Source of the DNA: a virus
DNA: 64,000 bases
IMG/VR virus record: IMGVR_UViG_3300048575_000503
Direction: 5' to 3' (one strand)
Part shown: piece by piece, positions 16,256-64,000 of the stretch
How positions within the stretch are numbered: position 1 is the stretch's first letter
Layout of the letters: the number at the start of each line of letters is the position of its first letter
Translations under genes and position numbers: made by a program
Notes under the pieces: model-generated
Seen by the model: the letters and a program-made list of their open reading frames with translations, nothing else
Database searches by the model: none
Told to the model about the DNA's origin: nothing

Positions 16256-16277
16256 TTGTTCAGTCCTTTCTAGGCGG

Positions 16278-44489: not shown

Positions 44490-44490
44490 C

Positions 44491-48070: not shown

Positions 48071-48400
48071 TGAACCTTCCCTTGCCGCTGACAGGTATAC
48101 AGCTTCCGACTACTGTGACCCATCGACCCTAACATAATTAACGATTGCTGGGCGGCACGCAAGTTGATCGGAACGGGACAAATAGCCTGTACACCGCCAT
48201 CCTACCGTTGGTTTCGGTATGTTGCAAACTGCCCAAAAGCGTGTGTGGAAGGTGTGATTTCTCCGCTATTGATGCCATTATGCCCGCTTTGTATGCGTGG
48301 TTTCGGAGTTCGGGAATCTCTCCGAAAAAAGGGCAGCCACCTTACGGGTTTGTTCGATGCCGTCAGTTTGCTATGTGCTCGGAGCTGTCTGCAGTTCCTC

Positions 48401-49714: not shown

Positions 49715-49724
49715 GGCGGGGACC

Positions 49725-49758
49725 GTGTATCCCAGTTTGTGTCCCGCTTTGTATCCCA
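49725..49758 (+). repeat. Three 12-bp-period direct repeats (integrase arm-type sites)
   Basis: TGTATCCCA / TGTGTCCCG / TGTATCCCA between integrase 1 and att core. Confidence 0.65.
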
Positions 49759-49849
49759 CTTTCGAGGGGGATTGCCAAGAACGAATGTCGGAACTTGCGC
49801 TAATATATTGTTTTTATTGACGAATTAGCGGCAAAAGAGCGTTGATTTT

Positions 49850-49866
49850 TGGCTGGGGTGGCAGGA
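49850..49866 (-). other. att core: duplicated 3' end of tRNA-Gln
   Basis: Minus strand TCCTGCCACCCCAGCCA fits tRNA positions 60-76 with C71, A72, G73 and CCA; match stops in the T-loop. Confidence 0.75.
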
Positions 49867-49938
49867 CTTTAATCCAAGGCGATAGTTTGACCATAAATTT
49901 CAATAACATACTGATTGTATTTGCCTTTTAGGCGCCGG

Positions 49939-49963
49939 ACTGCTACACATAACTGCTACACAT
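49939..49963 (+). repeat. Direct repeat ACTGCTACACAT x2 (arm-type sites of integrase 2)
   Basis: Identical 12-mers at 49939 and 49952. Confidence 0.6.
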
Positions 49964-49986
49964 TGCATGAACAAATGGTGCACAAG

Positions 49987-51747
49987 ATGGCGCTGGCGAC
50001 GAATATCATAAGGCGATCTGGATCGGCTCAATACTACCTTAGGGTGCGTGTTCCGACCGATGTTCAAGAGGCTGTCGGCCGCCGCGAAATCTGGAAATCA
50101 CTCGGCACGACAGACCCCACGGAAGCCAAGCGCCGCTCACGTGCCGAGCTGGACGTGCTGGACCGTGAATGGCAGGACATCCGAGCAAGCGCCAAGATCG
50201 AGCCTGCCGTTGTCGAGCAAGCCATCTGGAACCGCTACATTGAGCTGATCGAAGCCGATGAACGCTTTCGGCTCGAAACGCCGACCGAAGACGAGTTGGA
50301 TGATATCTGGCGCCTGCTGGTTAAGGAATTCGGCGATCACGACATGGAGGCGTACGGTATTTTACAGACGATCCGACAACGCGCCGACGACGATCGCAAG
50401 GCAAGGGCGGCTCGCCTCGCGACCGTCAAGGCAGCGATCGTGCGTAACAACCCGGCGCCAGTCGCCGAGGTTGCGGCCTCCGTTCTGCCGGCGCAGGGGA
50501 AGTACGTCGACAAGGCGTCGACCGATTACAAGCGTTTGGCAACCGGCCTGATGCGCGCCGAGGTCGAAGCCATTACGCGCACCGCTGAACGCGACCAAGG
50601 CAATTATTCCGGCGCGCCGCGTGACCCCCTTGTGAGACCGCCCAAGCTAGCGCCAGTCGCCGCGCCGGGCGAAACGCTGCTAGAGCTGTTTGAACGCTAC
50701 GCCGAGGAAAATGTGGCAGCGATCAAGCCCGACACTCTGCACCAAGCGCGCCAGTCCGTTGAGCTGTTTGTAGACTTCGTTGGGCGGAAGTTCCCCGTGA
50801 GTTCGCTTGATCGAAAGGTAGCGGCGAAGTGGCGTTCGCAACTTTTGCGGTATCCGGTCAAGGCAACGGAAACGAAGGCGTTCGCGGGAATGAACATGGT
50901 TCAGACCATCGAAACGAACGAGAAGGTCGGTAAGCCGGCGATCACAAAGCGCACAGTGAATCGCTACCTGTCCGGCCTTGGCGCCTTCTGCAAATGGCTG
51001 GTTTCTAGCGGCTATATCGCCGCATCGCCTTTGACCGACATGCACCTAGAGGTCAGCAAGAAATCGCGAAAGCGCCCCTTCACCGTCCCGGAAATGAACC
51101 GCCTGTTCGGCGAAGCACCCTTGTTCACGGGGTGCGCCACGTCAGACCGGATCGGTGATCCGGGCGAGTTCTGTGTCTCGGACCATCGATATTGGTTGCC
51201 GCTGGTGATGGCGTTCTCAGGCTGTCGACCTGCCGAGATCGCACAGCTTACGGTCGGCGACGTTCGGCAAGAGCATGATGTTTGGATCATGCATGTGACC
51301 GACGCCGACGATGAGCAGTCAGTGAAAACGCCGGGTTCGAAGCGCATCGTTCCGGTTCATTCTGAACTGATCCGGCTCGGCTTCATAGCCTTTTGCCAGC
51401 GACAGGCCGAACGCGGTTTGGCACGCATCTTCCCGGAAGCCGAACGCAACTCGCGTGGGCAGCTAGCGGCGACGTTCAGCCGCGACTTCACGCGAACGGT
51501 TCTCAAAGGCATCGGGTTAGACAAAGCGGGCGAACTGAGTCTCTACAGCTTCCGGCATGGCTTCGTCGATGCGCTCCGGCGTGCCGGCTACCTCGACGAA
51601 CAATTTGGTTTTCTTGTCGGGCATGCGAAGGCAAGCACAACAGGTTTATATGGCGTGATTCCGCAGGGAATGTTGCAGCAACGCGTTGAAATGATTGAGA
51701 AGGTAGCTTATCCCGGCCTCGATATTTCGCATTTATATCGCTCATAA
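49987..51747 (+). CDS. Tyrosine integrase of element 2
   Basis: YYLRVRVP arm domain; GCRPAEI (R), VKT (K), YSFRH (R), LVGH, GLYG (Y); start could be 49975. Confidence 0.92.
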   Translation: MALATNIIRRSGSAQYYLRVRVPTDVQEAVGRREIWKSLGTTDPTEAKRRSRAELDVLDREWQDIRASAKIEPAVVEQAIWNRYIELIEADERFRLETPTEDELDDIWRLLVKEFGDHDMEAYGILQTIRQRADDDRKARAARLATVKAAIVRNNPAPVAEVAASVLPAQGKYVDKASTDYKRLATGLMRAEVEAITRTAERDQGNYSGAPRDPLVRPPKLAPVAAPGETLLELFERYAEENVAAIKPDTLHQARQSVELFVDFVGRKFPVSSLDRKVAAKWRSQLLRYPVKATETKAFAGMNMVQTIETNEKVGKPAITKRTVNRYLSGLGAFCKWLVSSGYIAASPLTDMHLEVSKKSRKRPFTVPEMNRLFGEAPLFTGCATSDRIGDPGEFCVSDHRYWLPLVMAFSGCRPAEIAQLTVGDVRQEHDVWIMHVTDADDEQSVKTPGSKRIVPVHSELIRLGFIAFCQRQAERGLARIFPEAERNSRGQLAATFSRDFTRTVLKGIGLDKAGELSLYSFRHGFVDALRRAGYLDEQFGFLVGHAKASTTGLYGVIPQGMLQQRVEMIEKVAYPGLDISHLYRS

Positions 51748-51815
51748 ACACCCTAAAAACGCACGAAAACGCCCCTAAAACACGCAAAAACGCGTCAAAA
51801 AGCACATAAAACGCA
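51746..51815. repeat. Phased A-tract array (AAAA-CGC/CAC)
   Basis: A-tracts start at 51746, 51755, 51766, 51777, 51786, 51797, 51808. Confidence 0.75.
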
Positions 51816-51892
51816 CATTAGTTATTGCGTATATTAGAATAAAAGAGCTATCCTATTATCGATTTAAGTGATCAATAATAGGTAATTCATTC

Positions 51893-53137
51893 GTGTCGTA
51901 TATTTCTAAAATCAGGGATTGGCTAAGCGGACCGACTGAAACCAAGTCGTTCACAACGACAAGCGGCTGGACTGACTTGCTCGCCTACGCTCCGACAATC
52001 AGCGGCGCCAACGTCTCGCCCGAAACAGCGATGCGCGTTCCGGCGGTCAAGGCCGCCGTCGAGCTGATCGCAACGACCGTTGGAACCCTGCCGGTCAAGG
52101 TTTATCGTCGTCGAGATGGCGGCAAAGAGGTTGCCAGCGATCACGTCGCCTATCGTCTCGCCCATGACGACGGGAACGCTTGGACCTCGGCGACGGCGTT
52201 CCGCGCTGCCCTGACGACTGACGCTTTGCTTCACGGTAACGGCTACGCTGCTGTGACTCGCGCGTTTGACGGTCGCCCGCTCGAACTGATCCGCCTCGCG
52301 CCTCGCGCCGTATCGATCGAAACCGATAGTCTCACCGGCGAACCTCAGTATCGCGTTACGCTGGCGTCAGGCGGACAGCGCGTCTATCCGCACACCGAGA
52401 TTATTCACATCGCGGCGCCTTGTCCGCCAGATGGCATCACCGGCGTTGCCCCGATCACTCTTTGCCGCGAAGCCATCGGCCTCGCTTCGATCCTCGAACA
52501 GCACGCGGCGCAGCTTTTCGCCCGTGGCGCTCGTCCGTCTGGTGCTCTTCGCATGCCGGGCATTCTGACTCCGGAGGCAATGGAGCGCCTTAATTCTAGC
52601 TGGAGCGGTGCGCATTCCGGGAACAAATCTGGCGGGACTGCCATCCTTGAAAGCGGTACTGAGTGGCAGCCGATCACCTTCAACAGCGTCGACGCACAGT
52701 TCGCCGAGATGCGCGCGTTCCAGCTTGGCGAGATCGCCCGCGCTTTCCGCGTGCCGCCCGCCTTCTTGATGGACTACAGCCGCGCCACTTGGTCGAACTC
52801 CGAACAGATGGCCCGGCAGCTTATCGACTTCACCCTGAAGCCATGGCTCGACGCTTGGGAGTCAGCCTATCGCCGCGTCCTGCTGGCCGACGACGAACGC
52901 GCCGACTACAGCATTGAATTCGTTCTCGATGAACTGCTGAAGGGCGACACCGCCGCGCGTGCTGCCGCATATGCGCAGTTCCGTAGTGCTGGCGTCTACA
53001 CCGCCAACGAAATTCGCGCCCTCGAAAACCTGCCCTCGCGCCCTGACGGCGACGAACTCGGCAACCCCTACACATCCGCCACCACCGGGCCGACTTCAAA
53101 TTCGCCCGCGCCAACAACGGATAGCGGCAATGCTTGA
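51893..53137 (+). CDS. Portal protein (HK97 family)
   Basis: AMRVPAVKAAVELIA.TVG.LP, LLHGNGYA, FARGARPSG, IARAFRVPP, YTANEIRALENLP. Confidence 0.95.
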   Translation: MSYISKIRDWLSGPTETKSFTTTSGWTDLLAYAPTISGANVSPETAMRVPAVKAAVELIATTVGTLPVKVYRRRDGGKEVASDHVAYRLAHDDGNAWTSATAFRAALTTDALLHGNGYAAVTRAFDGRPLELIRLAPRAVSIETDSLTGEPQYRVTLASGGQRVYPHTEIIHIAAPCPPDGITGVAPITLCREAIGLASILEQHAAQLFARGARPSGALRMPGILTPEAMERLNSSWSGAHSGNKSGGTAILESGTEWQPITFNSVDAQFAEMRAFQLGEIARAFRVPPAFLMDYSRATWSNSEQMARQLIDFTLKPWLDAWESAYRRVLLADDERADYSIEFVLDELLKGDTAARAAAYAQFRSAGVYTANEIRALENLPSRPDGDELGNPYTSATTGPTSNSPAPTTDSGNA

Positions 53138-53462
53138 TACCTCAATCACGCGCTTTTTTGGCGATGCGAACTATTCGTTCAGGCTCACAGCGCCGATGAT
53201 CACCGAGCTTGAGCGCCTGACCAGTCGCGGCATTGGCGCCGTTTATCGCCGCATGCTCGGTCTTGAATGCAGCCATCAGGAAATTGTCGAAGTTGTTCGG
53301 CTTGGCCTGATCGGTGGCGGACTCGACCCCGAACGCGCCGCCGCTCTTTGCGCTGCTTATGCGGCACCGGCGCCGATCGCCCGCACTTACCAGCTTGCCG
53401 TTGACGTGCTCGACGCCGCTTGGAACGGCACCGCGAAGGATTCCACCGATGAACAGAATTGA
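53130..53462 (+). CDS. GTA gp10-like tail assembly chaperone
   Basis: FFGDANYSFRLT...ELE...IVEVVRLGLIGGG. Confidence 0.75.
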   Translation: MLDTSITRFFGDANYSFRLTAPMITELERLTSRGIGAVYRRMLGLECSHQEIVEVVRLGLIGGGLDPERAAALCAAYAAPAPIARTYQLAVDVLDAAWNGTAKDSTDEQN

Positions 53463-53949
53463 GTTCAAGTCCGCATTTTCTGTCGATGAAACCGGCGTCA
53501 TTGCCGGCACCGCTTGGCCGTTCGGCACGCCTGATCGCGTTGGCGATCTGATCACCAAGGGCGCCTTCGGGCAGATCGCCGCGCCGCTTCCAATGCTGTT
53601 CGGACACAATCCGGACGACGTTGTAGGCGTTTGGGAGTCTGTCGCCGAAGATGATGTTGGCCTTCAGGTTAAAGGTCGGCTTCTGGTCGATGATATCCCA
53701 CGTGCTGCCCAAGTTCGCGCCATGGTGACGAAGGGTGCAATTAGCGGCCTTTCGATTGGCTTCCAGATCAAGAGCGCCAAGCCGCGCACTGGTGGCCGGA
53801 CCATTACCGGCCTTGACCTCTTTGAAATTTCCCTTGTGAGCATTCCCGCTCACCCCGGCGCCCGCATCACGGTCGCCAAAGACGCCTCGGAAGCGATCGC
53901 AATTGCCGAGGCAATTAACCGGGCTGCGGCCCATTTCCGGAAAAACTGA
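53449..53949 (+). CDS. HK97-family prohead protease
   Basis: DRVGDLITKGAF, MLFGHN, GLSIGF, LFEISLVSIPA. Confidence 0.93.
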   Translation: MNRIEFKSAFSVDETGVIAGTAWPFGTPDRVGDLITKGAFGQIAAPLPMLFGHNPDDVVGVWESVAEDDVGLQVKGRLLVDDIPRAAQVRAMVTKGAISGLSIGFQIKSAKPRTGGRTITGLDLFEISLVSIPAHPGARITVAKDASEAIAIAEAINRAAAHFRKN

Positions 53950-53958
53950 GTAATTCTA

Positions 53959-55125
53959 ATGTCTTATTATTTTGACCCGAATGAATTTGTTCTGAAGTCC
54001 GCCGAAGGCGAGACCGAGGAAAACATCGTCACGAAGGCGCTTGCCGACCTTCAGAAGAGCGTCGATGACCGCCTGAAGGCTGTCGAGACCAAGGCCGCTG
54101 ACATTGACGCTGGCAAGCTCACGGCTCGCCTCGACAAGCTCGAAACGAAACTTGCTCGTCCTGCTGTCATCACCGGCAATTCCGCCGGCAACGTCGAGCG
54201 CAAGGCGTTTGACACAATGCTTCGGCGCGGCGAACTGCGGATGAGCGCCGATGAAGTGAAGACATTGACCGTCGCCAGCGACGCTGCCGGCGGCTACCTT
54301 GCGCCTGACGAGATCGGTTCGGAGCTGATCAAGCTTCTTCGCGTATTCTCTCCTATTCGGCAGTACGCCCGCGTCGTGTCGATCGGTGGCGATGTGATCA
54401 AATATCCGCGCCGCGCGTCAAGCACGTCGGCCACATGGGTTAGCGAGATCGCTGCCCGTACCTCGTCGGAAATGTCGTTCGAACAGGTGGCGATCACCCC
54501 GTTTGAACTCGCCACCTACACCGACCTCTCAAATCAGCTGCTGGAAGATAACGCCTATAATCTCGAAGGCGAGCTTCTTGCGGATTTTGCCGAGAGCTTC
54601 GGCAAGGCTGAGGGCGCGGCGTTTGTCGGCGGCACCGGCACCGGCCAGCCGAAGGGGCTTCTTAGCGCGTCCGGCATCACCGAAGTTAAAACCGGTGTTG
54701 CTGCGGCGTTCCCGACCACCAACCCGGCTGATGTTCTCATCGGTATGTTTCACAAGCTGCCGGGCGTGCATGCTCAGAATGCCGTCTGGATGATGAATCG
54801 TACCACGCTCGGCGCACTGCGCACATGGAAGGACGGTCAGGGTCGTTACCTTGTGATCGATCCGATTGCCGATGGCGCCGCGACCACGCTTCTTGGTCGG
54901 CCGATCGTTGAAGTCGTTGATATGCCGGATATCGCGGCGAACGCCTATCCGATCGTTTTTGGCGACCTTCAGGGCTACCGGATCGTTGATCGCGTCGGCT
55001 TCACCACACTTCGCGATCCCTACACCCTCGCGAACGTCGGGCAGACTCGCTTCCATGCTCGCAAACGTGTCGGTGCCGACATCACGCACCCAGACCGTTT
55101 TGTGAAGCTGAAGGTTTCAGCCTGA
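53959..55125 (+). CDS. Major capsid protein (HK97 fold)
   Basis: Coiled delta domain; DAAGGYLAP; SNQLLED; AFVGGTGTGQPKG; LLGRPI; FGDL. Confidence 0.95.
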   Translation: MSYYFDPNEFVLKSAEGETEENIVTKALADLQKSVDDRLKAVETKAADIDAGKLTARLDKLETKLARPAVITGNSAGNVERKAFDTMLRRGELRMSADEVKTLTVASDAAGGYLAPDEIGSELIKLLRVFSPIRQYARVVSIGGDVIKYPRRASSTSATWVSEIAARTSSEMSFEQVAITPFELATYTDLSNQLLEDNAYNLEGELLADFAESFGKAEGAAFVGGTGTGQPKGLLSASGITEVKTGVAAAFPTTNPADVLIGMFHKLPGVHAQNAVWMMNRTTLGALRTWKDGQGRYLVIDPIADGAATTLLGRPIVEVVDMPDIAANAYPIVFGDLQGYRIVDRVGFTTLRDPYTLANVGQTRFHARKRVGADITHPDRFVKLKVSA

Positions 55126-55132
55126 TCCTAAC

Positions 55133-55170
55133 AGCGCCCCGGCATAATCCGGGGCGCTATCTTCCTTTTT
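55133..55170 (+). terminator. Terminator after capsid gene
   Basis: AGCGCCCCGG-CATAAT-CCGGGGCGCT then T-rich tail. Confidence 0.7.
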
Positions 55171-55191
55171 GTTCTCAGGATTTTTGTAAAA

Positions 55192-55632
55192 ATGTCAGAT
55201 GTTTCTACTGCTGCTAATACTAAGGTCTATGTCGGTGGCGTGACCACGACGGTTACCAGTGCCGCCCTTATTGCCGATACATACGTTGAAATCGTTCAGG
55301 TTTCGGGCGTTGATCGCATCGGCGAGAACGTCGAAACGGTCAAGTACCGCACGCTGTCTGCTGCCCGTGAAAAGATTCTCCCCGGCATCCTCGCTGCCAG
55401 CGAAATCAAGCTGACCGTCAATCGGGATTCGACCGACGCCGGCCAGACTGCCCTCAAGGCGGCTTTCAACGCCAAGGCAAACCACAACTTTAAGGTCACA
55501 TATCCATCGGGCCTCGACTATTACTTTAGCGGCCTTGTGACCTCATGGGAAGACGCTCCGGGTGATGGCTCGAAGGTGGTCGAGACAACCTACACGATTG
55601 CCCAGAACTCAGACCTGTTCGAGGTGGCGTGA
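55192..55632 (+). CDS. Non-contractile tail tube protein
   Basis: YVEIVQV..V..IGE...G...DAGQTALKAA...NFKVTYP...YFSGLV pattern. Confidence 0.8.
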   Translation: MSDVSTAANTKVYVGGVTTTVTSAALIADTYVEIVQVSGVDRIGENVETVKYRTLSAAREKILPGILAASEIKLTVNRDSTDAGQTALKAAFNAKANHNFKVTYPSGLDYYFSGLVTSWEDAPGDGSKVVETTYTIAQNSDLFEVA

Positions 55633-56207
55633 TCATGTTGGGCGACGAGATAACCATCACCTATGATGACATGACCGTTCTTTGTCGCCCAACCCTCCGG
55701 GCGGCAATGAGCTTGAACCACCAGTACGGCCTTGCCGCCCTGATGAATGACGTACTCATGGGCAGTCTCACGGCTATCCGCCGCGTCATCGCAGCGACAG
55801 CCGACAGCCTCGACGTTCTCGGCTACCTCGACGCGCCAATTCCGGTGTCGCGGATTCTGGCAAGGATGCAGCCAGCCGTTTACCGGCTTCTGTTGGCAAT
55901 GACTGGCGCCGATGAGAAGCCGGGCGACGAAGACAGCGAAGGCGAGCCAATGTCATTTGCTGACTTTCTTGAGCAGCTTTTTAGCATTGGCACCGGCTGG
56001 CTTGGCTGGACGCCAGAGACGACGTGGGAAGCCACTCCGGCCGAAATCCTTGCCGCCTATCGTGGCCTGATCGCCAAGCTTGAAGCCATTCACGGCGTGC
56101 CGGACGACAAGCCAAAAAAGAAGCGCGACAGCCGCCCGCTGGACCGACAGTTTGAGGACGTGTTTGCCGGCTGCAAGGTTGTCCATATTGACAAGAAGGC
56201 AGTCTAA
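55629..56207 (+). CDS. Tail assembly chaperone with in-frame C-terminal extension domain
   Basis: LCRPTLRAAMSL N-domain; LFSIGTGWLGWTPETTWEATPAEI C-domain. Confidence 0.7.
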   Translation: MIMLGDEITITYDDMTVLCRPTLRAAMSLNHQYGLAALMNDVLMGSLTAIRRVIAATADSLDVLGYLDAPIPVSRILARMQPAVYRLLLAMTGADEKPGDEDSEGEPMSFADFLEQLFSIGTGWLGWTPETTWEATPAEILAAYRGLIAKLEAIHGVPDDKPKKKRDSRPLDRQFEDVFAGCKVVHIDKKAV

Positions 56208-56210
56208 GCA

Positions 56211-56534
56211 ATGGCTTACAGTAGCATACAGTCGGAATTCAGCCTCGCGCCAGAAGCGCCAATTCGTCGGCTTGTTCCGATCACGCCTAACGACAATGCC
56301 GACCTTCCAGAAGGTCCGGCGCGCCTGTTGGTCATTTCCGGCGGCGGTCGCATCGCCGTTGTTCCCATGAAGAACGCGAATGACGAGCCGGTTTACCTCA
56401 ACGCCTTTCCTAGTGAAAACCCGTACATCGTCCCTGTAGTTGTTCGCCGCGTTTTAGAGACAGGCACAGCCACGCCGACATCCGACCTCATCACCGCGAA
56501 TGGTGGGGCTTGGATTTTTGCTTGCTACGAGTGA
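56211..56534 (+). CDS. Head-spike base protein-like (RcGTA Rcc01079 type)
   Basis: ITPNDNADL...ARLL.I.GGG...PV.VRRVL.TGT, recalled similarity. Confidence 0.6.
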   Translation: MAYSSIQSEFSLAPEAPIRRLVPITPNDNADLPEGPARLLVISGGGRIAVVPMKNANDEPVYLNAFPSENPYIVPVVVRRVLETGTATPTSDLITANGGAWIFACYE

Positions 56535-56539
56535 CCGCC

Positions 56540-56884
56540 ATGCCAGTTCGCCCGCCTCGTCTCTGTTCTCTCTGCGGCAAGATTCATTTGTCTTACGAAC
56601 GCTGCCCCGCTGCGATCGAACGTGATCGCCAGCGTAAGGCCGCGTTTGACCAGCAGCGCCTTTCAGCCCGCCAGCGCGGTTATTCCTCCAAGTGGGAACA
56701 GGCGCGCGAAGGCTATCTGAAGTCACATCCCGTCTGTGCCATCTGCGGAAAGCCTGCGACCGTCGTCGACCACATCAAGCCACACAAGGGCGACAAGGCG
56801 CTGTTCTGGGACCGAAGCAACTGGCAACCCCTTTGTTCCCATTGCCATAATTCATTCAAGCAGTCACAGGAGCGCCGGTCATGA
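56540..56884 (+). CDS. HNH endonuclease (packaging cofactor)
   Basis: RGYSSKW, CAICG, VVDHIKPH, NWQPLCSHCH. Confidence 0.93.
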   Translation: MPVRPPRLCSLCGKIHLSYERCPAAIERDRQRKAAFDQQRLSARQRGYSSKWEQAREGYLKSHPVCAICGKPATVVDHIKPHKGDKALFWDRSNWQPLCSHCHNSFKQSQERRS

Positions 56885-57234
56885 GCCTTGACACGTTCAC
56901 CCCGCCACGCATCCCCGATGCACCGATGGCAGAAACCAACAAGGTGTCACTCTCTGAAGCGGAGTTCGGCGACGGATACACGCAGGCAACCCCAAACGGC
57001 TTGAACCACATCCGGCGTAGCTATCAGGCGAAGTGGAGTGCCCTCACTGACGACGAAGCACAGACGATCGTCGCATTCATGGTCGCGCACAAAGGTAGTG
57101 AGCCATTTTGGTACACGGTGCCGCGCATCGGAAAGCTGAAGGTCTCATGCAAGAATTGGTCACGCACCCTCAACGAGCTTGGATCGGTCGATGTGACCGC
57201 TGAGCTAGTGGAGAGCTTCAGCACTGAGGCTTGA
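56881..57234 (+). CDS. Distal tail protein (lambda gpM-like)
   Basis: AEFGDGYTQATPNGLN, AHKGSEPFWYT. Confidence 0.88.
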   Translation: MSLDTFTPPRIPDAPMAETNKVSLSEAEFGDGYTQATPNGLNHIRRSYQAKWSALTDDEAQTIVAFMVAHKGSEPFWYTVPRIGKLKVSCKNWSRTLNELGSVDVTAELVESFSTEA

Positions 57235-57298
57235 GGCGCCGAACCCAAGGCATACTATATCTAGTAGTAGTTAAAAATACGTATGGTGGTAGTGCTTA

Positions 57299-57385
57299 AG
57301 GGGTAGGGGGGGGGATTAGTTAATCTTTTCAATAGGTTGGGGGACCGGCGTGGGGTGCTTCGCGCAAGAGATTCCCGAAATAGAA
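57299..57385. promoter_or_regulatory. Candidate cos site of element 2
   Basis: G-run GGGGTAGGGGGGGG, then GGGGACCGGCGTGGGG...CGCGCAAGAGATTCCC in the only sizeable gap after the HNH/Dit genes. Confidence 0.5.
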
Positions 57386-57433
57386 ATTTCAACTACTACA
57401 TATTGTATATAAAATTCGATTGGACACTATATC

Positions 57434-57724
57434 ATGACGACTATCCCACTTGCCGACCTGAAGACATTTCTGAACGTTGAAGGTGCTGCCGACGATGAGG
57501 TGCTTTCGCAGATTCTCGCCGGCTCCGAAGCGTTCACAAACCGATTCCTGTCGACGCCGATTGCCGACATGGATCCGCTTCCGGCTGATCTGAAGATGGC
57601 CGTGCTGTTGCTCGCCGGTCACTTCTACAACAATCGCGAGGCGACGACGGCCGATTTCAGCGTCTATGCGCTGCCGCTTGGCTTCTCCGACCTGATCCAA
57701 GCGCATCGCGGGTGGAGCTTTTAA
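57434..57724 (+). CDS. Head-tail connector (HK97 gp6-like)
   Basis: LADLKTFL.V..DD...LKMAVLLLAGHFYNNRE. Confidence 0.92.
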   Translation: MTTIPLADLKTFLNVEGAADDEVLSQILAGSEAFTNRFLSTPIADMDPLPADLKMAVLLLAGHFYNNREATTADFSVYALPLGFSDLIQAHRGWSF

Positions 57725-57725
57725 G

Positions 57726-58136
57726 ATGGCTTCGCAGTCCGACCGCCTTCGCCGCCGACTTCAGGCGATCCCCGCTGCCGTTCGCACAGCCGTTCAGCCG
57801 ACGATTGTCGCTGCTGGAAATGACCTTGCGGGCGATATGCGTCGGCTTGCGCCAGAAGATACCGGCGCGCTGAAGGCGTCAATCCACGTCACGCCACCGG
57901 GTGGCACGACGCCGCCGTACAGTCAGCCGGGCGGTTCGCGTGTTGCCGGTGAGCTTGAGGCGCTGGTGACAGCCGGCGATAGCGAGGTTCGATATGCGCA
58001 CCTTGTCGAGTTCGGCACCACCGAGGCGGCAGCGCAGCCGTTCTTTTGGGTGGCGGTTCGCCTTGATCGCAAGCGCCTTACCAGCCGCATCAAGCGCGCC
58101 ATATCCAAAGCCGTTCGGAAGGAATGGGCGCGATGA
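57726..58136 (+). CDS. HK97 gp10-like tail component
   Basis: APEDTGALKASI, YAHLVEFGT, AQPFF. Confidence 0.9.
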   Translation: MASQSDRLRRRLQAIPAAVRTAVQPTIVAAGNDLAGDMRRLAPEDTGALKASIHVTPPGGTTPPYSQPGGSRVAGELEALVTAGDSEVRYAHLVEFGTTEAAAQPFFWVAVRLDRKRLTSRIKRAISKAVRKEWAR

Positions 58137-58546
58137 CCGAAGCGAGCCTTGCCGTACAGATCGCCATCCGTCGCCGGCTTCTGACCTCTGCCGATTTGCT
58201 CGCCATTGTGCCGGCAAACCGTATCAAAGAAGGTCCGGCGCGACCGGAACAGTTCCCTACGATCATTATCGGCGACGGGCAGATATCTGCCGAACCGATC
58301 ACATTCAGCCGGCGCGAGATCACCGTTTATTCCGACTTGCACATTTGGGCGACCGAGACCGGCCTTGCCGGTGGCAAAGCGATCGCCGGCCTAGTGCAAG
58401 CGGCGCTTCGTGCGCGCCTTGATTCTATTGAGGAATATCATGTTTTTGATAGCCAGGTTTCATCCATTCGTTTTCTTCGTGACCCGGACGGCCAGCATTC
58501 TCATGCCGTTGTGAGCGTGGTTGTGAAATTGCAGGAGACTCTGTAA
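58133..58546 (+). CDS. Tail terminator (DUF3168)
   Basis: ASLAVQIAIRRRL, FPTIIIGD, LHIWA, RDPDGQHSHAVV. Confidence 0.88.
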   Translation: MTEASLAVQIAIRRRLLTSADLLAIVPANRIKEGPARPEQFPTIIIGDGQISAEPITFSRREITVYSDLHIWATETGLAGGKAIAGLVQAALRARLDSIEEYHVFDSQVSSIRFLRDPDGQHSHAVVSVVVKLQETL

Positions 58547-58878
58547 TGCGTGCAGGAAATTTGAAGCACACCGCGCACATTCGCCGCTATGGCGAGCCGG
58601 TGATTGATGAGGCGGGACGAGAGGTTCCGTCTGGCGTGACAGTTACGTTACGACGCGCCGAGCTTGTGTCACGGGAGATTACGGAAGCCCAGACCGAGCC
58701 GGGCGCACGTGCCACTGAGAAGCTGGTGCTTCGCATCAGGAACGACCTCGACGAAGCCGTGTTGACATCGGACGTGATCGCCCTCGACGACATCGGACGC
58801 GAGTTCGACATCACGTCATTGGCGACACTGGAGAACGGCCGCGTGCTCGAAATCCATTGCGAGGGGGCGGCATCATGA
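58546..58878 (+). CDS. Head closure / head-tail adaptor
   Basis: MRAGNLKH start, ...LEIHCE end. Confidence 0.8.
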   Translation: MRAGNLKHTAHIRRYGEPVIDEAGREVPSGVTVTLRRAELVSREITEAQTEPGARATEKLVLRIRNDLDEAVLTSDVIALDDIGREFDITSLATLENGRVLEIHCEGAAS

Positions 58879-59264
58879 CACGCGGATTGAAGCCATCGGG
58901 CATCGTCACCGCTAGTCGGACCGTTGCCACCGTGCCTAAGCCACCGGCTTGGTTGAGCCGGTTCGCGAAGGACGAATGGCGTCGCGTGGCGCCGATCCTT
59001 GTCGAACGCGCCGTGCTGACCGAAGCGGACCTTGGCACGCTTGAATCATTCTGTGTTTCGAGCGGCATCGTTCGACAGGCGCAGATCGAAATTAGCCGAG
59101 ACGGCCTTGTTATCGCCGGCAAGCGCCACGCTGCCTTTGGCGTCCTGAACGCTGCCCAGACCACGGCGCGCCTTTGCGCGGCAGAGCTTGGCTTAACGCC
59201 GGTTAGCCGCAGCCGGCCAGCTATCCGAGACGACGAAGATGCTGATTCCCTCTTGGATATCTGA
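58875..59264 (+). CDS. Terminase small subunit (P27 family)
   Basis: PKPPAWLS..AKDEWRRV, ELGLTPVSRSR. Confidence 0.92.
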   Translation: MTRGLKPSGIVTASRTVATVPKPPAWLSRFAKDEWRRVAPILVERAVLTEADLGTLESFCVSSGIVRQAQIEISRDGLVIAGKRHAAFGVLNAAQTTARLCAAELGLTPVSRSRPAIRDDEDADSLLDI

Positions 59265-60855
59265 CGGCAGCGAAATCCCCGATCCGTTCGGCCATGGCGA
59301 GCGCGCCGTGCAGTGGTTGCGGCGCCTGAAGCACCCTAAGAGCAAGGCGGCAGGGCGCGCTTTCCAGTTGGACCCATGGCAAGAGCGCGTCATCCGCAAG
59401 CTATATGGTCCTCGGAAACCGGATGGATCGCGCATCGTTCGGCGCTTGGTTTTGCTGCTGCCGCGTGGCAACCGCAAGACCAGCCTATGCGCAGCTATCA
59501 CGCTGCTTCACCTTATCGGCCCAGAGCGTCAGCCGGGCAATCTCATCGTGTCCGCCGCGTCGGCACGTGAGCAGGCGCGCGAGTTGTTCAACGAAGCGGC
59601 GCTTATCGTCACCGGTGATAAGCGGCTTAGTTCGCATCTCCGCATCAAGGACTATCAGTCCGAGATCGGCTTTCCCAAGGATCGCAGCCGCTATGTGGCC
59701 GTCGCTTCTGACGGCAAGGTGCAGCATGGTAAGACGCCGAACGTCGTCATTGCCGACGAGCTGCACGCGTGGGAAGGCGCCGCTGGTCGAAAGCAGTGGG
59801 AAGCGTTGGACTCGGCGCTGGTCAAGGTGCCGGATACGCTCTTGATTGTCGCGACCACGTCGGGACGCGGGCAGGAAAATCTTGCTTGGACGACGGTCGA
59901 GTACGCCATGAAGGTTCAGCGTGGCGAGATCGACGACCCGGCGACCCTGCCGGTTCTCTTTATGGCTGAAGAAGGAGATGACTGGCGGGACGAAGCGGTT
60001 TGGCACGCCATCAATCCCGGCATGGAACACGGCTATCCCGATTTGTCCGCCTTCCGCGATAAGGCGCATAAGGCAATCCTGTCGCCACCAGATCGTGACG
60101 GCTTTATGCAATATAACCTCAACCGGTGGCTGGACTATTCGGCAGCGCCGTTCGTCGAGATGAGCGCTTATGACCAGCCGGGGAACGCAGCGCCGATCGA
60201 TCTGGATGCGCTCGCAGGCAAGCCGTGCTGGCTTGGCGTCGACCTTTCGAGCAACGGCGACCTAACAGCGATCGTCGCCGCGTGGCGAGACGGCAGCGGC
60301 GGCTACATCGTCCAGCCTTGGTTTTTCTGCCCGGCGGACAATTTGCAGCGCAAGGCGGACAAGGACGGCGCGCCCTATCCGCTATGGGCAGACCAAGGGT
60401 TCATCAACCCGACGCCGGGCAATGTCGTCGACTACCGCGCGATTGCCGACACAATCCGGGAGCTGGCGAGCCGCTATGACGTGAAAGAGATCGCATACGA
60501 TCCGTACGGCTCGGCACAGATCATGGTCGAACTCGCCGAGGAAGGCTTGCCATGCGTGGCATTCCGGCAGGGCATGCTGTCCATGGCACCAGCGACGAAA
60601 GAGCTAGAACGCGCCATCCTCGCCGGGCAGCTTCGCCATGGGGCGCATCCGGTGTTGCGGTGGAATTTTGACAACATCGCTGTCGAGAAGGACGCGGCCG
60701 GGAACGTCAAGTTCAGCAAGGCGAAGTCGCGTGACAAGATCGACGGCGCCGTTGCCGCCGCGATGGCTGTTGCCCGTGCAGCCGCTGGCGAAGAAACATC
60801 GATTATTTACAATAACTTATCGGCTAGGCCGCAAGGCATTATTTGGTTGGATTGA
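59239..60855 (+). CDS. Terminase large subunit (HK97-like)
   Basis: LDPWQ, PRGNRKT, IADELH, LGVDLS, KIDGAVA. Confidence 0.95.
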   Translation: MLIPSWISDGSEIPDPFGHGERAVQWLRRLKHPKSKAAGRAFQLDPWQERVIRKLYGPRKPDGSRIVRRLVLLLPRGNRKTSLCAAITLLHLIGPERQPGNLIVSAASAREQARELFNEAALIVTGDKRLSSHLRIKDYQSEIGFPKDRSRYVAVASDGKVQHGKTPNVVIADELHAWEGAAGRKQWEALDSALVKVPDTLLIVATTSGRGQENLAWTTVEYAMKVQRGEIDDPATLPVLFMAEEGDDWRDEAVWHAINPGMEHGYPDLSAFRDKAHKAILSPPDRDGFMQYNLNRWLDYSAAPFVEMSAYDQPGNAAPIDLDALAGKPCWLGVDLSSNGDLTAIVAAWRDGSGGYIVQPWFFCPADNLQRKADKDGAPYPLWADQGFINPTPGNVVDYRAIADTIRELASRYDVKEIAYDPYGSAQIMVELAEEGLPCVAFRQGMLSMAPATKELERAILAGQLRHGAHPVLRWNFDNIAVEKDAAGNVKFSKAKSRDKIDGAVAAAMAVARAAAGEETSIIYNNLSARPQGIIWLD

Positions 60856-60859
60856 GAAA

Positions 60860-63568
60860 ATGGCAACAGATGAGGAGCGGCTTGTCGTCTCGCTTGAGGC
60901 GCGCATCCGTGATTTTGAAAAGCAGATGGACCGCGCCGCGAAGGCGGGTAGCAAGAGCTTCGACTCGATTGAGAAGCGCGCCAAGGTATCGGCCGCGACG
61001 TTAGAGAAGTCGCTTTCTGGCGCTGCCGCCGGTATCGGCAAGGGCCTGAACGCGGCGCTGTCGGCATTCGGTGGCGGCTTTGCCGGCGCTTTGATCGGTG
61101 GCGGTTTGAGCGGGGTTATTGCCAACCTCGGCGAAATCAGCCGGGGCATTGCCGAAGTTGGCGACAAGGCCAAAATGACCGGCTTGTCGAACAAGGCGTT
61201 TCAGGAACTCGCCTTCGTCGCCTCGCAAAACCGGATCGAGGTCGACGCGCTGGCGGACGGCATGAAGGAACTTCAGCTTCGCGGCGATGAGTGGATCAAG
61301 ACCGGTTCCGGTGGTGGTGCCGAGAGTTTCCAGCGCCTTGGCTTCAGTGCGACCGAGCTTGCGAGCCGGCTGAAAGACCCAAGCGCCTTGCTGGTCGAAA
61401 TCATCCGACGCGTTCAGACGCTCGACAAGGCCGCGCAAATCCGCATTTTTGATGAGTTGTTCGGCGGTCAGGGCGGCGAGAAGTTCGTGCAGCTTATCGC
61501 CCAAGGAGCGGATGGCGTTCAGGCGACGATCGATCGGGCGAACGAACTCGGCGCCGTCATGTCGGATGAGGTGATAGCCAAAGCCGCTGAGATCGACCGG
61601 GAATTTAATGCCATTTCGGCGACGGTTGCCACTGGCCTCAAGTCTGAAATCATTGAAGTTGTTAGGTATTTTGGCGAACTGCTGGACAAGCTCAACCAGT
61701 TGGACCAGCAGAGCAACGCCAACATCCAGCGCCGGCTGGTGCAGGTCTACGCTGGCCGCGAGAAGCTGAAAGAGCGCATTGCGGCCGATGAGGCGAAGTC
61801 GGCGGCGAACCCCGACAACGTGGTGTTGCTCGACCAGCTTGAAGGCGAAAAAGCCAAACTGGAAGAGCTGACCGACGAGGCGATGAAGCTTCGTGACATC
61901 CTCGACGAACGCGCCGGCTGGAAATCTGGCGAGAACGTCGTGGACGAAGCAACGGCTGCCAAAGATAGAGTCGACCGGCTCGGAACCGCGCTTGGCGGCA
62001 CTGTGAACGGCGCAACGGCTGGCTCGACAGCTATGCGGACTTTTGCCGACGCCATCAGGGCCTTGAAGGACGAAATCCCTGATTTAGCAAAGGAATTGGC
62101 AAACCTCGACGCCAAGGCGAAAATCGAGAGCGTCTACGCGTCGGCGCTTCGCATGGCCTCGACGCCGGCAGAACTGCTTGCAGCGTCAAACCTGCACGAC
62201 ACGGCACTTGCGGCGCTTGCCGGCAAGGACACGAAGGCTGCGGCTTCGAAAGGCATGCTCGACTTGATCGGCCTCACAGAAGGCACTGATCGAGGGCGTG
62301 GCTACAACGAGGTTTTGGGCTACGGTGCTTTCACCGGCGGACCGGTCAACCTTACAACCATGACCCTCGACGACGTGATGGCGCTTCAAGGCCGCATGCT
62401 CGCGGACCCCGCGAACAGCTTCCATAGCTCGGCTGTTGGCCGCTACCAGATCACCAAAACGACGCTTGCCGACCTGATGGGGCGGCTTGGCTTGAAGGGC
62501 GACGAGCTTTACGACCCCGCGATGCAGGACCGACTTGCCGAGGAACTTTTGCGGCAGTCAGGCGGCGATCCGGCAAAGCTACGCGGACGTTGGACCAGCC
62601 TGAAGGGTGTCGACGATGCGACTATCAGTCAGGCGTACGGACAGAGCAGCCTTAGCCTCGGCAACATGGACCCCGGCTTGAAGCAGCAAGCGACAGCCTA
62701 TGCTGAACTTGTGGCGAACGCGAAGCAGTATGTTGCAGTGCAGCAACAGGAACAGCAGGCGGTCGGACAGACCAAGGTGCAGGCGGCGACCCTTCGCTAT
62801 GAACAATCGATGCTCGCCGAGGCACAGCGCGCCGGCATCCAGTTGGCGCCGGAACAGCGAAACCAGCTTCATGAACTCGCGGCGGCGATGGCCGAAGCCG
62901 AGCAGGCGACCGAGCGCACGGCTAAAGCGCAAGAGGGTCTGAATCAGGCAAAGCAGTTTTTTGGCTCGACGATCGCCAACGCCTTCACTGGCCTGATCAC
63001 CGGCGCACAATCGTTTGATCAGGTTTTACAACAGGTTATCAATAGCCTCATTCAGGCAGCGATCCAAGGCGCTTTGCTCGGCGAGGGACCGCTTGGAAGC
63101 CTGTTCGGTGGCGGCGGCGGTATTCTCGGCGCGATTTTCGGCTTTGCGCGTGGTGGCGTTGTGCAGGCCGCGACTGGCGGACACATCGTCGGACCCGGCA
63201 CAGGCACATCCGATAGCATTCCGGCGCTGCTGAGCAACGGCGAATTCGTCATCAACTCTGCCGCTACGAGAAAACACCGCGCCCTGCTTGAGGCGATCAA
63301 CTCAGGAACGATTCTCGGATTTGCCGATGGTGGCGCCGTCTCGCCGGCCGCTCCAAGTCTGCCACGTGCTAAGGTTGTATCCGGCGATGGGGCGACGGGC
63401 AACCTCACGGTTCAGAACAACATCACGGTCAACGGCAGTGCCGGCACGCCGGAACAGAACGCGGACCTTGCCCAGAAGACGGCGAAAGCGGCAGAACAGA
63501 GCGTCCGCAAGATCGTTGTCGAAGAGATGTACAAGCAGCGCCGGCAGGGCGGCATTCTGTCCCGGTGA
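60860..63568 (+). CDS. Tape measure protein with internal lysozyme domain
   Basis: LVVSLEARI start; EGT...SSAVGRYQI muramidase; GPGTGTSDSIPALLSNGEFV. Confidence 0.9.
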   Translation: MATDEERLVVSLEARIRDFEKQMDRAAKAGSKSFDSIEKRAKVSAATLEKSLSGAAAGIGKGLNAALSAFGGGFAGALIGGGLSGVIANLGEISRGIAEVGDKAKMTGLSNKAFQELAFVASQNRIEVDALADGMKELQLRGDEWIKTGSGGGAESFQRLGFSATELASRLKDPSALLVEIIRRVQTLDKAAQIRIFDELFGGQGGEKFVQLIAQGADGVQATIDRANELGAVMSDEVIAKAAEIDREFNAISATVATGLKSEIIEVVRYFGELLDKLNQLDQQSNANIQRRLVQVYAGREKLKERIAADEAKSAANPDNVVLLDQLEGEKAKLEELTDEAMKLRDILDERAGWKSGENVVDEATAAKDRVDRLGTALGGTVNGATAGSTAMRTFADAIRALKDEIPDLAKELANLDAKAKIESVYASALRMASTPAELLAASNLHDTALAALAGKDTKAAASKGMLDLIGLTEGTDRGRGYNEVLGYGAFTGGPVNLTTMTLDDVMALQGRMLADPANSFHSSAVGRYQITKTTLADLMGRLGLKGDELYDPAMQDRLAEELLRQSGGDPAKLRGRWTSLKGVDDATISQAYGQSSLSLGNMDPGLKQQATAYAELVANAKQYVAVQQQEQQAVGQTKVQAATLRYEQSMLAEAQRAGIQLAPEQRNQLHELAAAMAEAEQATERTAKAQEGLNQAKQFFGSTIANAFTGLITGAQSFDQVLQQVINSLIQAAIQGALLGEGPLGSLFGGGGGILGAIFGFARGGVVQAATGGHIVGPGTGTSDSIPALLSNGEFVINSAATRKHRALLEAINSGTILGFADGGAVSPAAPSLPRAKVVSGDGATGNLTVQNNITVNGSAGTPEQNADLAQKTAKAAEQSVRKIVVEEMYKQRRQGGILSR

Positions 63569-63585
63569 GCTTCACGAAACTGTCT

Positions 63586-63682
63586 GCTAACTTCACACGG
63601 AAATCCGAAAGTGACAACTTGAAGGTCGGTGTGAAGTTAGCGCGAGCTGGTCGTAAATTTTTACAAAATTTATGCGACCAGC
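63586..63682. repeat. Two adjacent inverted repeats downstream of the tape measure gene
   Basis: GCTAACTTCACAC (63586-63598) / GTGTGAAGTTAGC (63629-63641); GCTGGTCG-TAAATTT...AAATTTA-TG-CGACCAGC (63646-63682). Confidence 0.7.
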
Positions 63683-64000
63683 GCATGCCCGGCTGAATGG
63701 CTCAAAAAAAAGTTCGCCGCAGGTGTGAATCTCATGCGGCTCGACACTATAAGCCATACAGGACACACGACGGCTGAAAAGCCGCGTCTAAATTTGGCTT
63801 TCGAAATAAACGCTCACTGGCTGGCTCCGCTGTCGGGGTACACGCACGTAGCTGACACATCTAGAAACCCAGCCCTGGACGAACCTGATCGATTTTAGAG
63901 CATGCTGAAACGAGAAGCATCGACGAGCAGTGAGAGCGAGACACGAAAGCGTCGACCCGATGACGTATACTAGAAAGATTCTAAACTAGGAAGCTTTAGA

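Follow-up and report, generated by a model that had tools for sequence, protein, structure and literature searches.

Known phage satellites take whole virions (P4, SaPIs and PICIs) or whole tails (cf-PICIs). The cf-PICIs rely on a helper phage, which also induces them. RcGTA lacks both an integrase and att sites, its genes are in the canonical order, and its tip proteins (Dit, hub, peptidase and megatron) are its own. The agents that resemble RcGTA are fixed, vertically inherited chromosomal clusters and package random fragments of host DNA of about 4 kb. In the tails for which assembly is known, it begins with the tip, and we know of no experimental precedent for a chimeric tail that combines a foreign tip with an element's own tape measure and tube. 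In the proteobacterial cf-PICIs, the prototype of which is EcCIEDL933, the morphogenesis genes come first and are followed by hnh-terS-terL (bioRxiv 10.1101/2022.09.08.507074). Putative satellites from E. coli carry capsid, tape measure and baseplate component genes and have three related coliphages (Inny, Muut and Mt1B1_P17) as putative helpers (Barth, Dunham and Seed 2023; PMC10448857).

The locus described here lies in a stretch of 64,000 nucleotides (IMG/VR virus record IMGVR_UViG_3300048575_000503), referred to below as the window, which was extended by 3.4 kb with a JGI metagenome contig (L081) that is 100% identical to it over 4,874 bases. The last 17 bases of a tRNA-Gln recur at positions 49850–49866, which defines a tRNA-Gln-integrated element of 16.9 kb from att repeat to att repeat. 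The repeat is the only perfect 17-mer common to both flanks, and the GC content rises stepwise at attR. The tRNA-Gln was located by ARAGORN and Rfam on the minus strand of the contig (L081 7600–7674), and the two tRNAs are the only Rfam matches in the 3.4-kb extension. A 246-aa open reading frame at the end of the contig is an artefact that overlies tRNA-Gln and tRNA-Pro. As expected of a chromosomal island, the element has an integrase at its left end and att repeats at both ends. An earlier note on this DNA had described an integrase that runs straight into 17 co-oriented genes; the Pfam and PHROG searches found all of the listed genes in that place and order, on the plus strand between positions 49915 and 63568. 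The R/K/R-H/H/Y positions of the integrase are kept in a full-length alignment with four homologs. The features of the element, in window coordinates unless stated otherwise, are the following:

49850–49866, no strand: attL, a 17-bp copy TGGCTGGGGTGGCAGGA of the tRNA-Gln(UUG) 3' end
49915–51747, plus strand: tyrosine integrase, 610 aa (N-terminal DUF6538 and Phage_integrase in Pfam; PHROG_1, E 5e-32)
51893–53137, plus strand: portal protein, HK97 type (PF04860, E 3e-101; PDB portals 9lbn and 8cez)
53130–53462, plus strand: small chaperone-like protein, about 110 aa, Phage_TAC_11-like (PHROG_8985, E 6e-23; start chosen)
53449–53949, plus strand: prohead serine protease S78 (PF04586, E 2.5e-24; start likely)
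53959–55125, plus strand: major capsid protein, HK97 fold (PF05065, E 4e-79; PDB 6tb9 Rcc01687, E 4e-45)
55133–55158, plus strand: strong GC hairpin (10 pairs, 9 of them GC) followed by a T-run, directly 3' of the capsid gene
55192–55632, plus strand: tail tube protein (PF08813, E 2e-11)
55629–56207, plus strand: tail assembly chaperone (PF09550; PHROG_7493, E 1e-21)
56211–56534, plus strand: head spike base, a capsid vertex decoration like RcGTA Rcc01079 (profile, AF2, Foldseek)
56510–56884, plus strand: HNH endonuclease, packaging accessory of HK97-type cos systems (PF01844; PHROG_2323, E 4e-28)
56881–57234, plus strand: distal tail (tail tip M) protein of the lambda gpM type (PF05939, E 2e-20; PDB 8iyk_M, E 1.5e-9)
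57235–57433, no strand: non-coding gap of 199 bp that contains a G-run and an AT-rich stretch, candidate for a cos site or an internal promoter
57434–57724, plus strand: head-tail connector, gp6-like adaptor (PF05135, E 6e-14)
57726–58136, plus strand: HK97 gp10-like neck protein (PF04883)
58124–58546, plus strand: tail completion or tail-to-head joining protein, SPP1 gp17-like (PF11367, E 4e-19; PDB 5a20 and 2lfp)
58546–58878, plus strand: head completion (closure) protein (PF05521)
58857–59264, plus strand: small terminase, Terminase_4 (PF05119, E 2e-21)
59239–60855, plus strand: large terminase (PF03354 and PF20441; PDB 6z6d, E 2e-63)
60860–63568, plus strand: tape measure protein (TMP), 902 aa from the ATG at 60860 (PHROG_10574, E 1e-137)
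63589 to extended coordinate 64900, no strand: AT-rich (43–50% GC) non-coding block of 1.3 kb
Extended coordinates 66726–66800: intact tRNA-Gln and attR, 2.7 kb beyond the window end

The element encodes a complete small-head module, composed of portal, protease, RcGTA-like capsid protein and spike base, an HNH-TerS-TerL packaging set of the HK97 type, and a complete neck formed of the adaptor, the gp10-like protein, and the head and tail completion proteins. The nearest solved structure to the capsid protein is the RcGTA capsid. The 107-aa spike base protein belongs to the head and not to the tail. A profile built from 42 sequences matches RcGTA Rcc01079 in the PDB with an E-value of 2.6e-19, and the AF2 model (pLDDT 84) has the Rcc01079 chain 6tb9_A1 as its top Foldseek match, with a TM-score of 0.79; the name that the earlier note gave to this protein is therefore correct. 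The homolog of the portal-adjacent chaperone-like protein in a relative (L082) matches Phage_TAC_11 (PF11836), and the same relative has a 175-aa gene in the place of the 199-bp gap. The promoter and terminator scan in which the hairpin behind the capsid gene was identified was, as a whole, not above chance.

The element also encodes a tail shaft, consisting of the tube, the chaperones, the 902-aa tape measure protein and a distal ring of the gpM type, together with an assembly protein of the gpI type. The gene of the latter is separated from that of gpM by 8 kb and lies in the 3.4-kb extension, which holds only an AT-rich stretch, a small HTH protein, the lambda gpI-type protein and an 82-aa open reading frame ahead of the att site and tRNA-Gln. 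A word-pattern search returned no relatives of gpI, which were found by a wider protein search. The AT-rich block is flanked by 40-nt inverted repeats and contains a tandem repeat of 15/22 nt in about eight overlapping copies. It is a candidate origin, regulatory region or MITE-like insert. One 79-aa open reading frame on its minus strand and others of 54 and 55 aa overlap the inverted or tandem repeats and were rejected as spurious, since the repeat periods of 15 and 22 nt break the reading frame.

No hub, fibre, lysis or replicase genes were detected in the window by Pfam and PHROG searches, as the earlier note had claimed for a stretch of about 14 kb. That note had extended its claim to control genes and had allowed that further genes might follow, and DNA-binding HTH and gpI proteins are indeed encoded just past base 64000. 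However, the 3.4 kb past the window contain no gpL, gpK or gpJ hub or fibre gene, no lysis gene and no replicase, and the element ends 2.7 kb on, at attR and the tRNA-Gln. No open reading frame of the element was assigned a hub or central-fibre domain by Pfam or PHROG, and no hub-sized protein of the element is left without assignment, the several unassigned open reading frames being small. Neither a side fibre nor a holin is encoded in the 16.9 kb; gpI is the only open reading frame with a strong hydrophobic segment, and none is holin-like. Pfam identified no endolysin domain outside the tape measure protein. AlpA, primase and replicase domains are absent from all open reading frames of the element, the integrase of which runs straight into the portal gene.

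Two complete lambda-like prophages with an M-L-K-I-J tip, from Phyllobacterium myrsinacearum (L164) and from a Hyphomicrobiales record (JGI 3300048850; L165), were used as references. Their gpM and gpI proteins are 33–44% and 41–45% identical to those of the element, respectively, and the C-termini of the tape measure proteins are 44–53% identical, with the best value, 53%, covering the last 47 aa. The genes of the prophages are ordered TMP-M-L-K-I-J-...-CHAP, and their gpL, gpK (JAB/NlpC), gpJ (1,500–2,100 aa) and CHAP endolysin have no counterparts in the element. When the gpL, gpK, gpJ and CHAP endolysin sequences of the two prophages were used as tblastn queries, they matched neither the element nor any of about 165 related loci, whereas gpM from the same set matched 11 of the loci and gpI four. 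Among five genomes with relatives that bear gpM or gpI, none contains a Phage_tail_L gene and one contains a Phage-tail_3 gene, which belongs to the domain family that gpJ of the complete prophages matches. These five genomes thus usually lack a resident helper of the lambda type, and any helper would need to enter from outside by infection. Members of the gpM/gpI type and M-L-K-I-J phages occur together in the JGI samples 3300048574, 3300048575, 3300048578 and 3300048850.

The earlier note had called the gene order scrambled. The order is not private to this locus but conserved, with over 100 loci from Hyphomicrobiales, Rhodobacterales and Sphingomonadales sharing it, and the recurrence of the architecture in these alphaproteobacterial loci, where tRNA att repeats enclose about 17 kb, speaks against a one-off decayed remnant. 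The 32 relatives that are bounded by tRNA-derived repeats span 14.4–19.0 kb, and the median span is 17.4 kb when this element and an 18-kb contig assembled as a circle (L135) are included. The insertion sites of the relatives comprise 12 kinds of tRNA; three integrase types are used across the family, and relatives with the same integrase type as the element have tRNA-end repeats of 17–23 bp. Some genomes harbour two copies. Cultured carriers include Propylenella binzhouense L72, Roseovarius sp. 217, Cereibacter azotoformans KA25, Methylocapsa aurea KYG and Pararhodobacter aggregans D1-19. A strict word search gave 175 hits in genomes and 285 in IMG/VR, with the family common in Rhodobacterales and Hyphomicrobiales. 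Independent gene calls of the Propylenella and Roseovarius members include no hub, fibre or lysis genes. The TerL proteins of the family form a clade far from two phage outgroups, and none of 50,697 phage records contains a TerL match of at least 60% identity, the top-ranked ones being about 35% identical. Interspersed within the TerL clade are capsid-only relatives that have exactly the layout of cf-PICIs plus cargo genes. Cluster c24, which follows the tape measure gene in some relatives, was considered as a hub and rejected, as it is HNH-like or of no known type. No description of this family of alphaproteobacterial head-plus-shaft elements of about 17 kb was found in the literature searched, and the family is apparently previously undescribed.

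Like the element, cf-PICIs are integrase-borne islands of about 14–17 kb that encode their own HK97-type portal, protease, capsid protein and connectors, have no holin or lysis genes, and have TerL and capsid proteins far from those of known phages. The likeness is one of layout, as described for cf-PICIs. The HNH-TerS-TerL genes of the element follow the morphogenesis genes, as in cf-PICIs, but neck and tail genes are intercalated. Whereas cf-PICIs have no tail genes, the element encodes a tail tube, two chaperones, a tape measure, a tail completion protein, gpM and gpI. It also differs from them in having no alpA and pri-rep genes, which adjoin the integrase gene in cf-PICIs, an alphaproteobacterial host and an RcGTA-like capsid. 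The putative E. coli satellites, which were predicted from sequence, resemble the element in gene content as described: they are integrated in tRNA genes, about 13 kb long, and combine a few tail genes with capsid genes (PMC10448857). Unlike the element, they are reported to have no terminase, protease or head-tail adaptor, and they carry a RepA_N protein (PMC10448857).

The combined evidence indicates that the element is probably an intact, integrase-mobilised phage satellite that would borrow its tip and lysis functions, and a member of an alphaproteobacterial family whose layout relates it to cf-PICIs. We infer its dependence on a helper from its gene content. The proposal of the earlier note, an intermediate satellite with its own head and tail shaft and with tip and lysis functions supplied by a helper, is supported by the absence of gpL, gpK, gpJ and CHAP, by the cf-PICI-like relatives in the TerL clade, and by the findings beyond the window and among the relatives. 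The contractile-tailed prophage that this note considered adjacent is about 14 kb away, with host genes and an IetAS defence island in between, and no link to the element was found; a search to the left of the neighbouring island revealed no further copy of the att core beyond the two known ones. In the proposed mechanism, the element would excise by means of its own integrase, and its unit-length DNA of about 17 kb would be packaged in its own small capsids. Its tube would polymerise around its own tape measure on a tip initiator from a co-infecting lambda-like siphophage of the M-L-K-I-J type, and the completed tail would be capped and joined to the element's own heads. Particles would leave the cell through the lysis genes of the helper, and the stolen tip would set their host range. 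More tentatively, we propose that the elements of about 17 kb may be "tail-tip thieves" that build the particle from head and neck through tube and tape measure down to the distal ring and depend on helpers solely for lysis and for the tip or receptor-binding complex, and that their lineages may have switched repeatedly between capsid-only and capsid-plus-shaft forms.

It is unlikely that this copy is a defective member of a functional family, which has lost replication and tip genes, gained a MITE-like insert and is no longer capable of transfer. The closest complete relative with the same integrase-first layout (L034/L082) encodes a 507-aa protein behind the tape measure, listed as "replication protein" in UniRef and with a weak Atlas lead to REP_ORF2-G2P, in the place where the element has the AT-rich block. 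A sister element at the same tRNA-Gln (L168) has gpL beside gpI, and the element does not. Nevertheless, another relative (L031) also contains an AT-rich non-coding block of 1.3 kb at this position, and the block may be functional. Furthermore, none of the 18 recognisable genes is truncated or disrupted, the two att repeats match perfectly, purifying selection acts on gpI (dN/dS of about 0.14 in comparison with the sister element), and the size of 16.9 kb is in the middle of the family range.

It is quite improbable that the element is an autonomous, extremely small temperate siphophage that obtains tip, lysis and replication functions from small proteins, lytic domains of the tape measure protein and host replication. 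It has a complete set of genes for head, neck, tube, tape measure and distal ring, residues 527–975 of the tape measure protein match PHROGs of the lysozyme or endolysin type, AAA_25 or DnaD-like/HTH_36 proteins carried by some relatives could act in replication, and most host genomes tested have no obvious resident helper tip module. However, of the five tip genes present in complete prophages the element has only M and I, and gpL, gpK and gpJ occur in none of the approximately 165 loci; to our knowledge, no siphophage tail has yet been described that lacks a hub or Tal protein. Neither a lysis cassette nor a replication module was found in the 16.9 kb, and the lack of an unassigned protein of hub size, of a holin-like open reading frame and of an endolysin domain outside the tape measure also argues against autonomy.

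Among solved structures, those of RcGTA (PDB 6tb9, 6te8 and related entries) are the nearest to the element in both the capsid protein (E 4e-45) and the head spike base (profile, E 2.6e-19). The gene clusters are similar in size, the host class is similar, and the host orders overlap those with RcGTA-like clusters. It is nevertheless very improbable that the element is a domesticated GTA-like cluster, or that it is a satellite of an RcGTA-type agent and not of phages. Its integrase and perfect att repeats, together with the many tRNA sites and three recombinase types of the family and the several copies in some genomes, show that it is mobile and not fixed, its gene order differs, it has no hub and only a gpM of the lambda type in place of the g12-g13-g14-g15 tip, and four of the five host genomes have no Phage-tail_3 gene and thus no gpJ-like tip.

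If the satellite interpretation is correct, the element would represent a new degree of partial autonomy, in which everything up to the distal tail ring is built and the tip and lysis alone are missing, and "tail-tip thieves" would be the link that has been missing between cf-PICIs and complete phages. A foreign tip could then nucleate a chimeric tail, and tail shafts and tips would be exchangeable between genetic entities. Such elements would provide a natural system for studying how a tape measure and tube recognise a foreign tip, and would uncouple host range, set by the tip, from the cargo in the head. The relatives carry defence-like and toxin cargo, and the family may therefore be an unnoticed route of gene flow among marine and soil alphaproteobacteria. 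Because tail profiles are forbidden in the cfPICI model of SatelliteFinder (PMC10085698), that model excludes such elements by design, and current satellite finders miss the family for the same reason. Provirus predictors call these elements small proviruses of 15–20 kb.

The element that begins at 49850 is most likely a helper-dependent satellite. Its gene content, boundaries, and family conservation support the earlier proposal of a satellite that builds a head and tail shaft and borrows tip and lysis functions. Eighteen genes in one orientation (plus strand) are arranged nearly without gaps between window positions 49915 and 63568, and assignments from Pfam and PHROG confirm the integrase and 17 co-oriented head, neck, packaging, and tail genes recognized previously. 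The sequence past the window end is provided by L081, a JGI metagenome contig that encodes an identical TerL, has 100% identity to window positions 59127-64000, and extends 3.4 kb beyond.

Features of the element in order
Plus strand, first gene: tyrosine integrase, 610 aa, with N-terminal DUF6538 (integration)
Plus strand: portal, ~110-aa Phage_TAC_11-like protein, S78 prohead protease, HK97-fold capsid protein (head)
Plus strand: tail tube, tail assembly chaperone, 107-aa protein (tail and head decoration)
Plus strand: HNH endonuclease, lambda gpM-type minor tail protein (packaging accessory and distal tail)
Non-coding: 199-bp gap between the gpM-type gene and the neck genes
Plus strand: gp6-like connector, HK97 gp10-like protein, SPP1 gp17-like tail completion protein, head completion protein (neck)
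Plus strand: small terminase, then large terminase (packaging)
Plus strand, start 60860: tape measure, 902 aa (tail), last gene in the window
Window 63589-64000 to L081 4463-5774: AT-rich non-coding block, 1.3 kb, 43-50% GC
Next: HTH protein, 132 aa
Next: 201-aa protein with an end-to-end match to the lambda gpI family (PF06805; PHROG_32, E 1e-33)
Next: ORF, 82 aa
Minus strand: tRNA-Gln(UUG)

The integrase is full length, and the conserved catalytic positions are present in an alignment with four homologs. Among solved structures, the capsid protein is closest to that of RcGTA, the gene transfer agent from Rhodobacter capsulatus (E 4e-45), and TerL is nearest to chain 6z6d. The nearest matches of the gpM and tail completion proteins are lambda tail tip protein M and SPP1 gp17, respectively. 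The 107-aa protein belongs to the head: a profile built from 42 relatives matches the RcGTA head spike base Rcc01079 (E 2.6e-19), and the Rcc01079 chain is the best structural match of its AF2 model (pLDDT 84), in agreement with the earlier label of spike base.

The last 17 bases of the tRNA-Gln have one exact copy in the window, at 49850-49866, immediately 5' of the integrase, and the GC content rises stepwise at the tRNA-Gln. Therefore, the element is 16.9 kb long, from attL at 49850 to attR at 66742 in numbering continued past the window. A tRNA-Pro(CGG) is located ~340 bp past the tRNA-Gln (L081 8012-8088); tRNA-Pro is the integration site in several satellite relatives. The AT-rich block is flanked by 40-nt inverted repeats that are 88% complementary. 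Inside it, a 15/22-nt tandem repeat with the unit AAGCACCAAAGCCTC is present in about eight copies that overlap. A similar AT-rich non-coding block occupies the same position in the relative L031. The block may be an iteron-type origin, served in trans, or a MITE-like insertion.

No hub, central fibre, side fibre, holin-like ORF, endolysin, or replicase was found in the 16.9-kb element. Relatives of its gpI with 40-45% identity reside in complete prophages whose genes follow the canonical order TMP-gpM-gpL-gpK-gpI-gpJ, with a CHAP endolysin after them. In tblastn searches, gpL, gpK, gpJ, and CHAP of these prophages have no match in the extended element or in ~165 family loci, whereas gpM is present in 11 of the loci and gpI in four. 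The absence of tip, fibre, lysis, and replicase genes noticed earlier extends to the part of the element beyond base 64000, where only the AT-rich block, HTH protein, gpI, 82-aa ORF, and tRNA-Gln are located. The element keeps gpM, gpI, and the TMP C-terminus, which are the parts contacting the tip in lambda; their identities to the complete-prophage counterparts are 44%, 45%, and 53% (last 47 TMP residues), respectively. In Rhodobacterales-type members, the TMP gene is followed instead by genes for a PHROG_1302 distal tail protein and a Phage_TAC_18 chaperone, with nothing resembling a hub.

As a satellite, the element would be excised by its own integrase and would make small heads filled with its own DNA by HNH-TerS-TerL. 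Its tube, chaperones, tape measure, and gpM, with gpI, may form a tail shaft on the tip complex of a lambda-like siphophage, and its neck proteins would join this tail to its heads. Exit from the cell would depend on lysis by the helper. Counting against this reading, none of five genomes carrying gpM- or gpI-bearing relatives contains a Phage_tail_L gene and only one contains a Phage-tail_3 gene; any helper would need to arrive as an incoming phage.

With TerL as the query of a strict word search, 175 relatives were identified among contigs representing one genome per species, and 285 in IMG/VR; the named hosts are Alphaproteobacteria throughout. The gene order called scrambled in the earlier note is as listed there, but is not private to this element: more than 100 loci keep portal-protease-capsid ... 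HNH ... connector-gp10-tail completion-head completion-terS-terL-(TMP), and a one-off decayed remnant is not borne out. Thirty-two relatives have a tRNA (Gln, Glu, Arg, Thr, Pro, Lys, Cys, Met, Leu, Gly, and others) at one end and, at the other, a repeat of 15 to more than 45 bases from the 3' part of that tRNA; these limits enclose 14.4-19.0 kb. Members with DUF6538-type integrases, including the window element, have short repeats of 17-23 bp; the two other recombinase types in the family are tyrosine recombinases of ~370 aa and large serine recombinases. The median size, including the window element and the circular L135, is 17.4 kb, and the narrow range fits putative unit-length packaging in a small capsid. 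Some genomes contain two family copies. Independent gene calls and Pfam show the same content in Propylenella and Roseovarius members, with host genes directly past the att site. L135, an IMG/VR family member of 18,154 bp, has a 127-bp terminal repeat and therefore assembles as a circle. It has no visible integrase but encodes a MazF-like toxin together with HTH_17, HTH_36, and weak DnaD-like proteins, and may represent an episome or a form excised only recently.

In proteobacterial capsid-forming PICIs (cf-PICIs), morphogenesis genes come first and hnh-terS-terL after (bioRxiv 10.1101/2022.09.08.507074). The family shares this order, but has neck and tail genes inserted. Capsid-only relatives in Xanthobacteraceae genomes (L036, L039, L044) have a cf-PICI-like layout of portal-protease-capsid-adaptor-HNH-terS-terL, then cargo and integrase. 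The cargo, which looks defence-like, comprises a Ser/Thr kinase, helicase-like and AAA ATPases, and large proteins, at the position of the tape measure in tail-bearing members. In the TerL tree, the family is a single clade distant from two phage outgroups. Capsid-only members, defined approximately as those without homologs of the window's tail genes, are intermixed with shaft-bearing ones, and strongly supported branches require at least eight state changes. TerL has no match of 60% identity or more among 50,697 phage records, the top-ranked being about 35% identical. Overall, the element reads as a cf-PICI-like satellite that encodes its own tail shaft. The SatelliteFinder cfPICI model forbids tail and holin profiles, and such elements are therefore excluded by design (PMC10085698). 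Satellites with a few tail genes predicted in E. coli have, by their authors' account, no terminase, protease, or head-tail adaptor genes (PMC10448857); they are probably a different family. No description of this family was found in the literature searched.

A sister element in the same tRNA-Gln (L168, Logan contig, SRR31722575) has 76.6% nucleotide identity over 1.2 kb and a 77% identical gpI; comparison of the two elements shows purifying selection on gpI (dN/dS about 0.14). Upstream of gpI, the sister encodes Phage_tail_L (gpL) and a 294-aa HTH-like protein, whereas the window element has only the 132-aa HTH protein; the sister has no space for gpJ. In L034, the closest complete relative sharing the integrase-first layout, the tape measure is followed by the gene of a 507-aa protein (14866-16389). 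It has no Pfam or PHROG match; its UniRef name, replication protein, and a weak ESM Atlas lead to REP_ORF2-G2P suggest that it may be the replication initiator of the family. The window copy has neither this putative replication protein nor the sister's gpL, and therefore may be a weakened family member.

To the left, attL adjoins a low-GC3 island on the minus strand (43581-49759). Besides a 302-aa protein, it encodes IetAS, an anti-phage system (IetS subtilase, E 2.5e-243; IetA AAA ATPase, E 2.5e-114). The island's own integrase, the second of the DUF6538 type, points away from that of the satellite, and the alignment shows it to be without the first catalytic Arg. An att repeat marking the left end of the island was sought but not found. 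A myovirus-like prophage occupies the minus strand at ~685-35000. It has genes for a major head protein, portal, TerL, tail sheath, tape measure, and tail fibre, and also encodes two primases (D5_N/DUF5906 at 29551-31308) and BrnT/BrnA, a toxin-antitoxin pair. Between the prophage and the satellite are host genes, including a dnaN-like gene (41309-42445).
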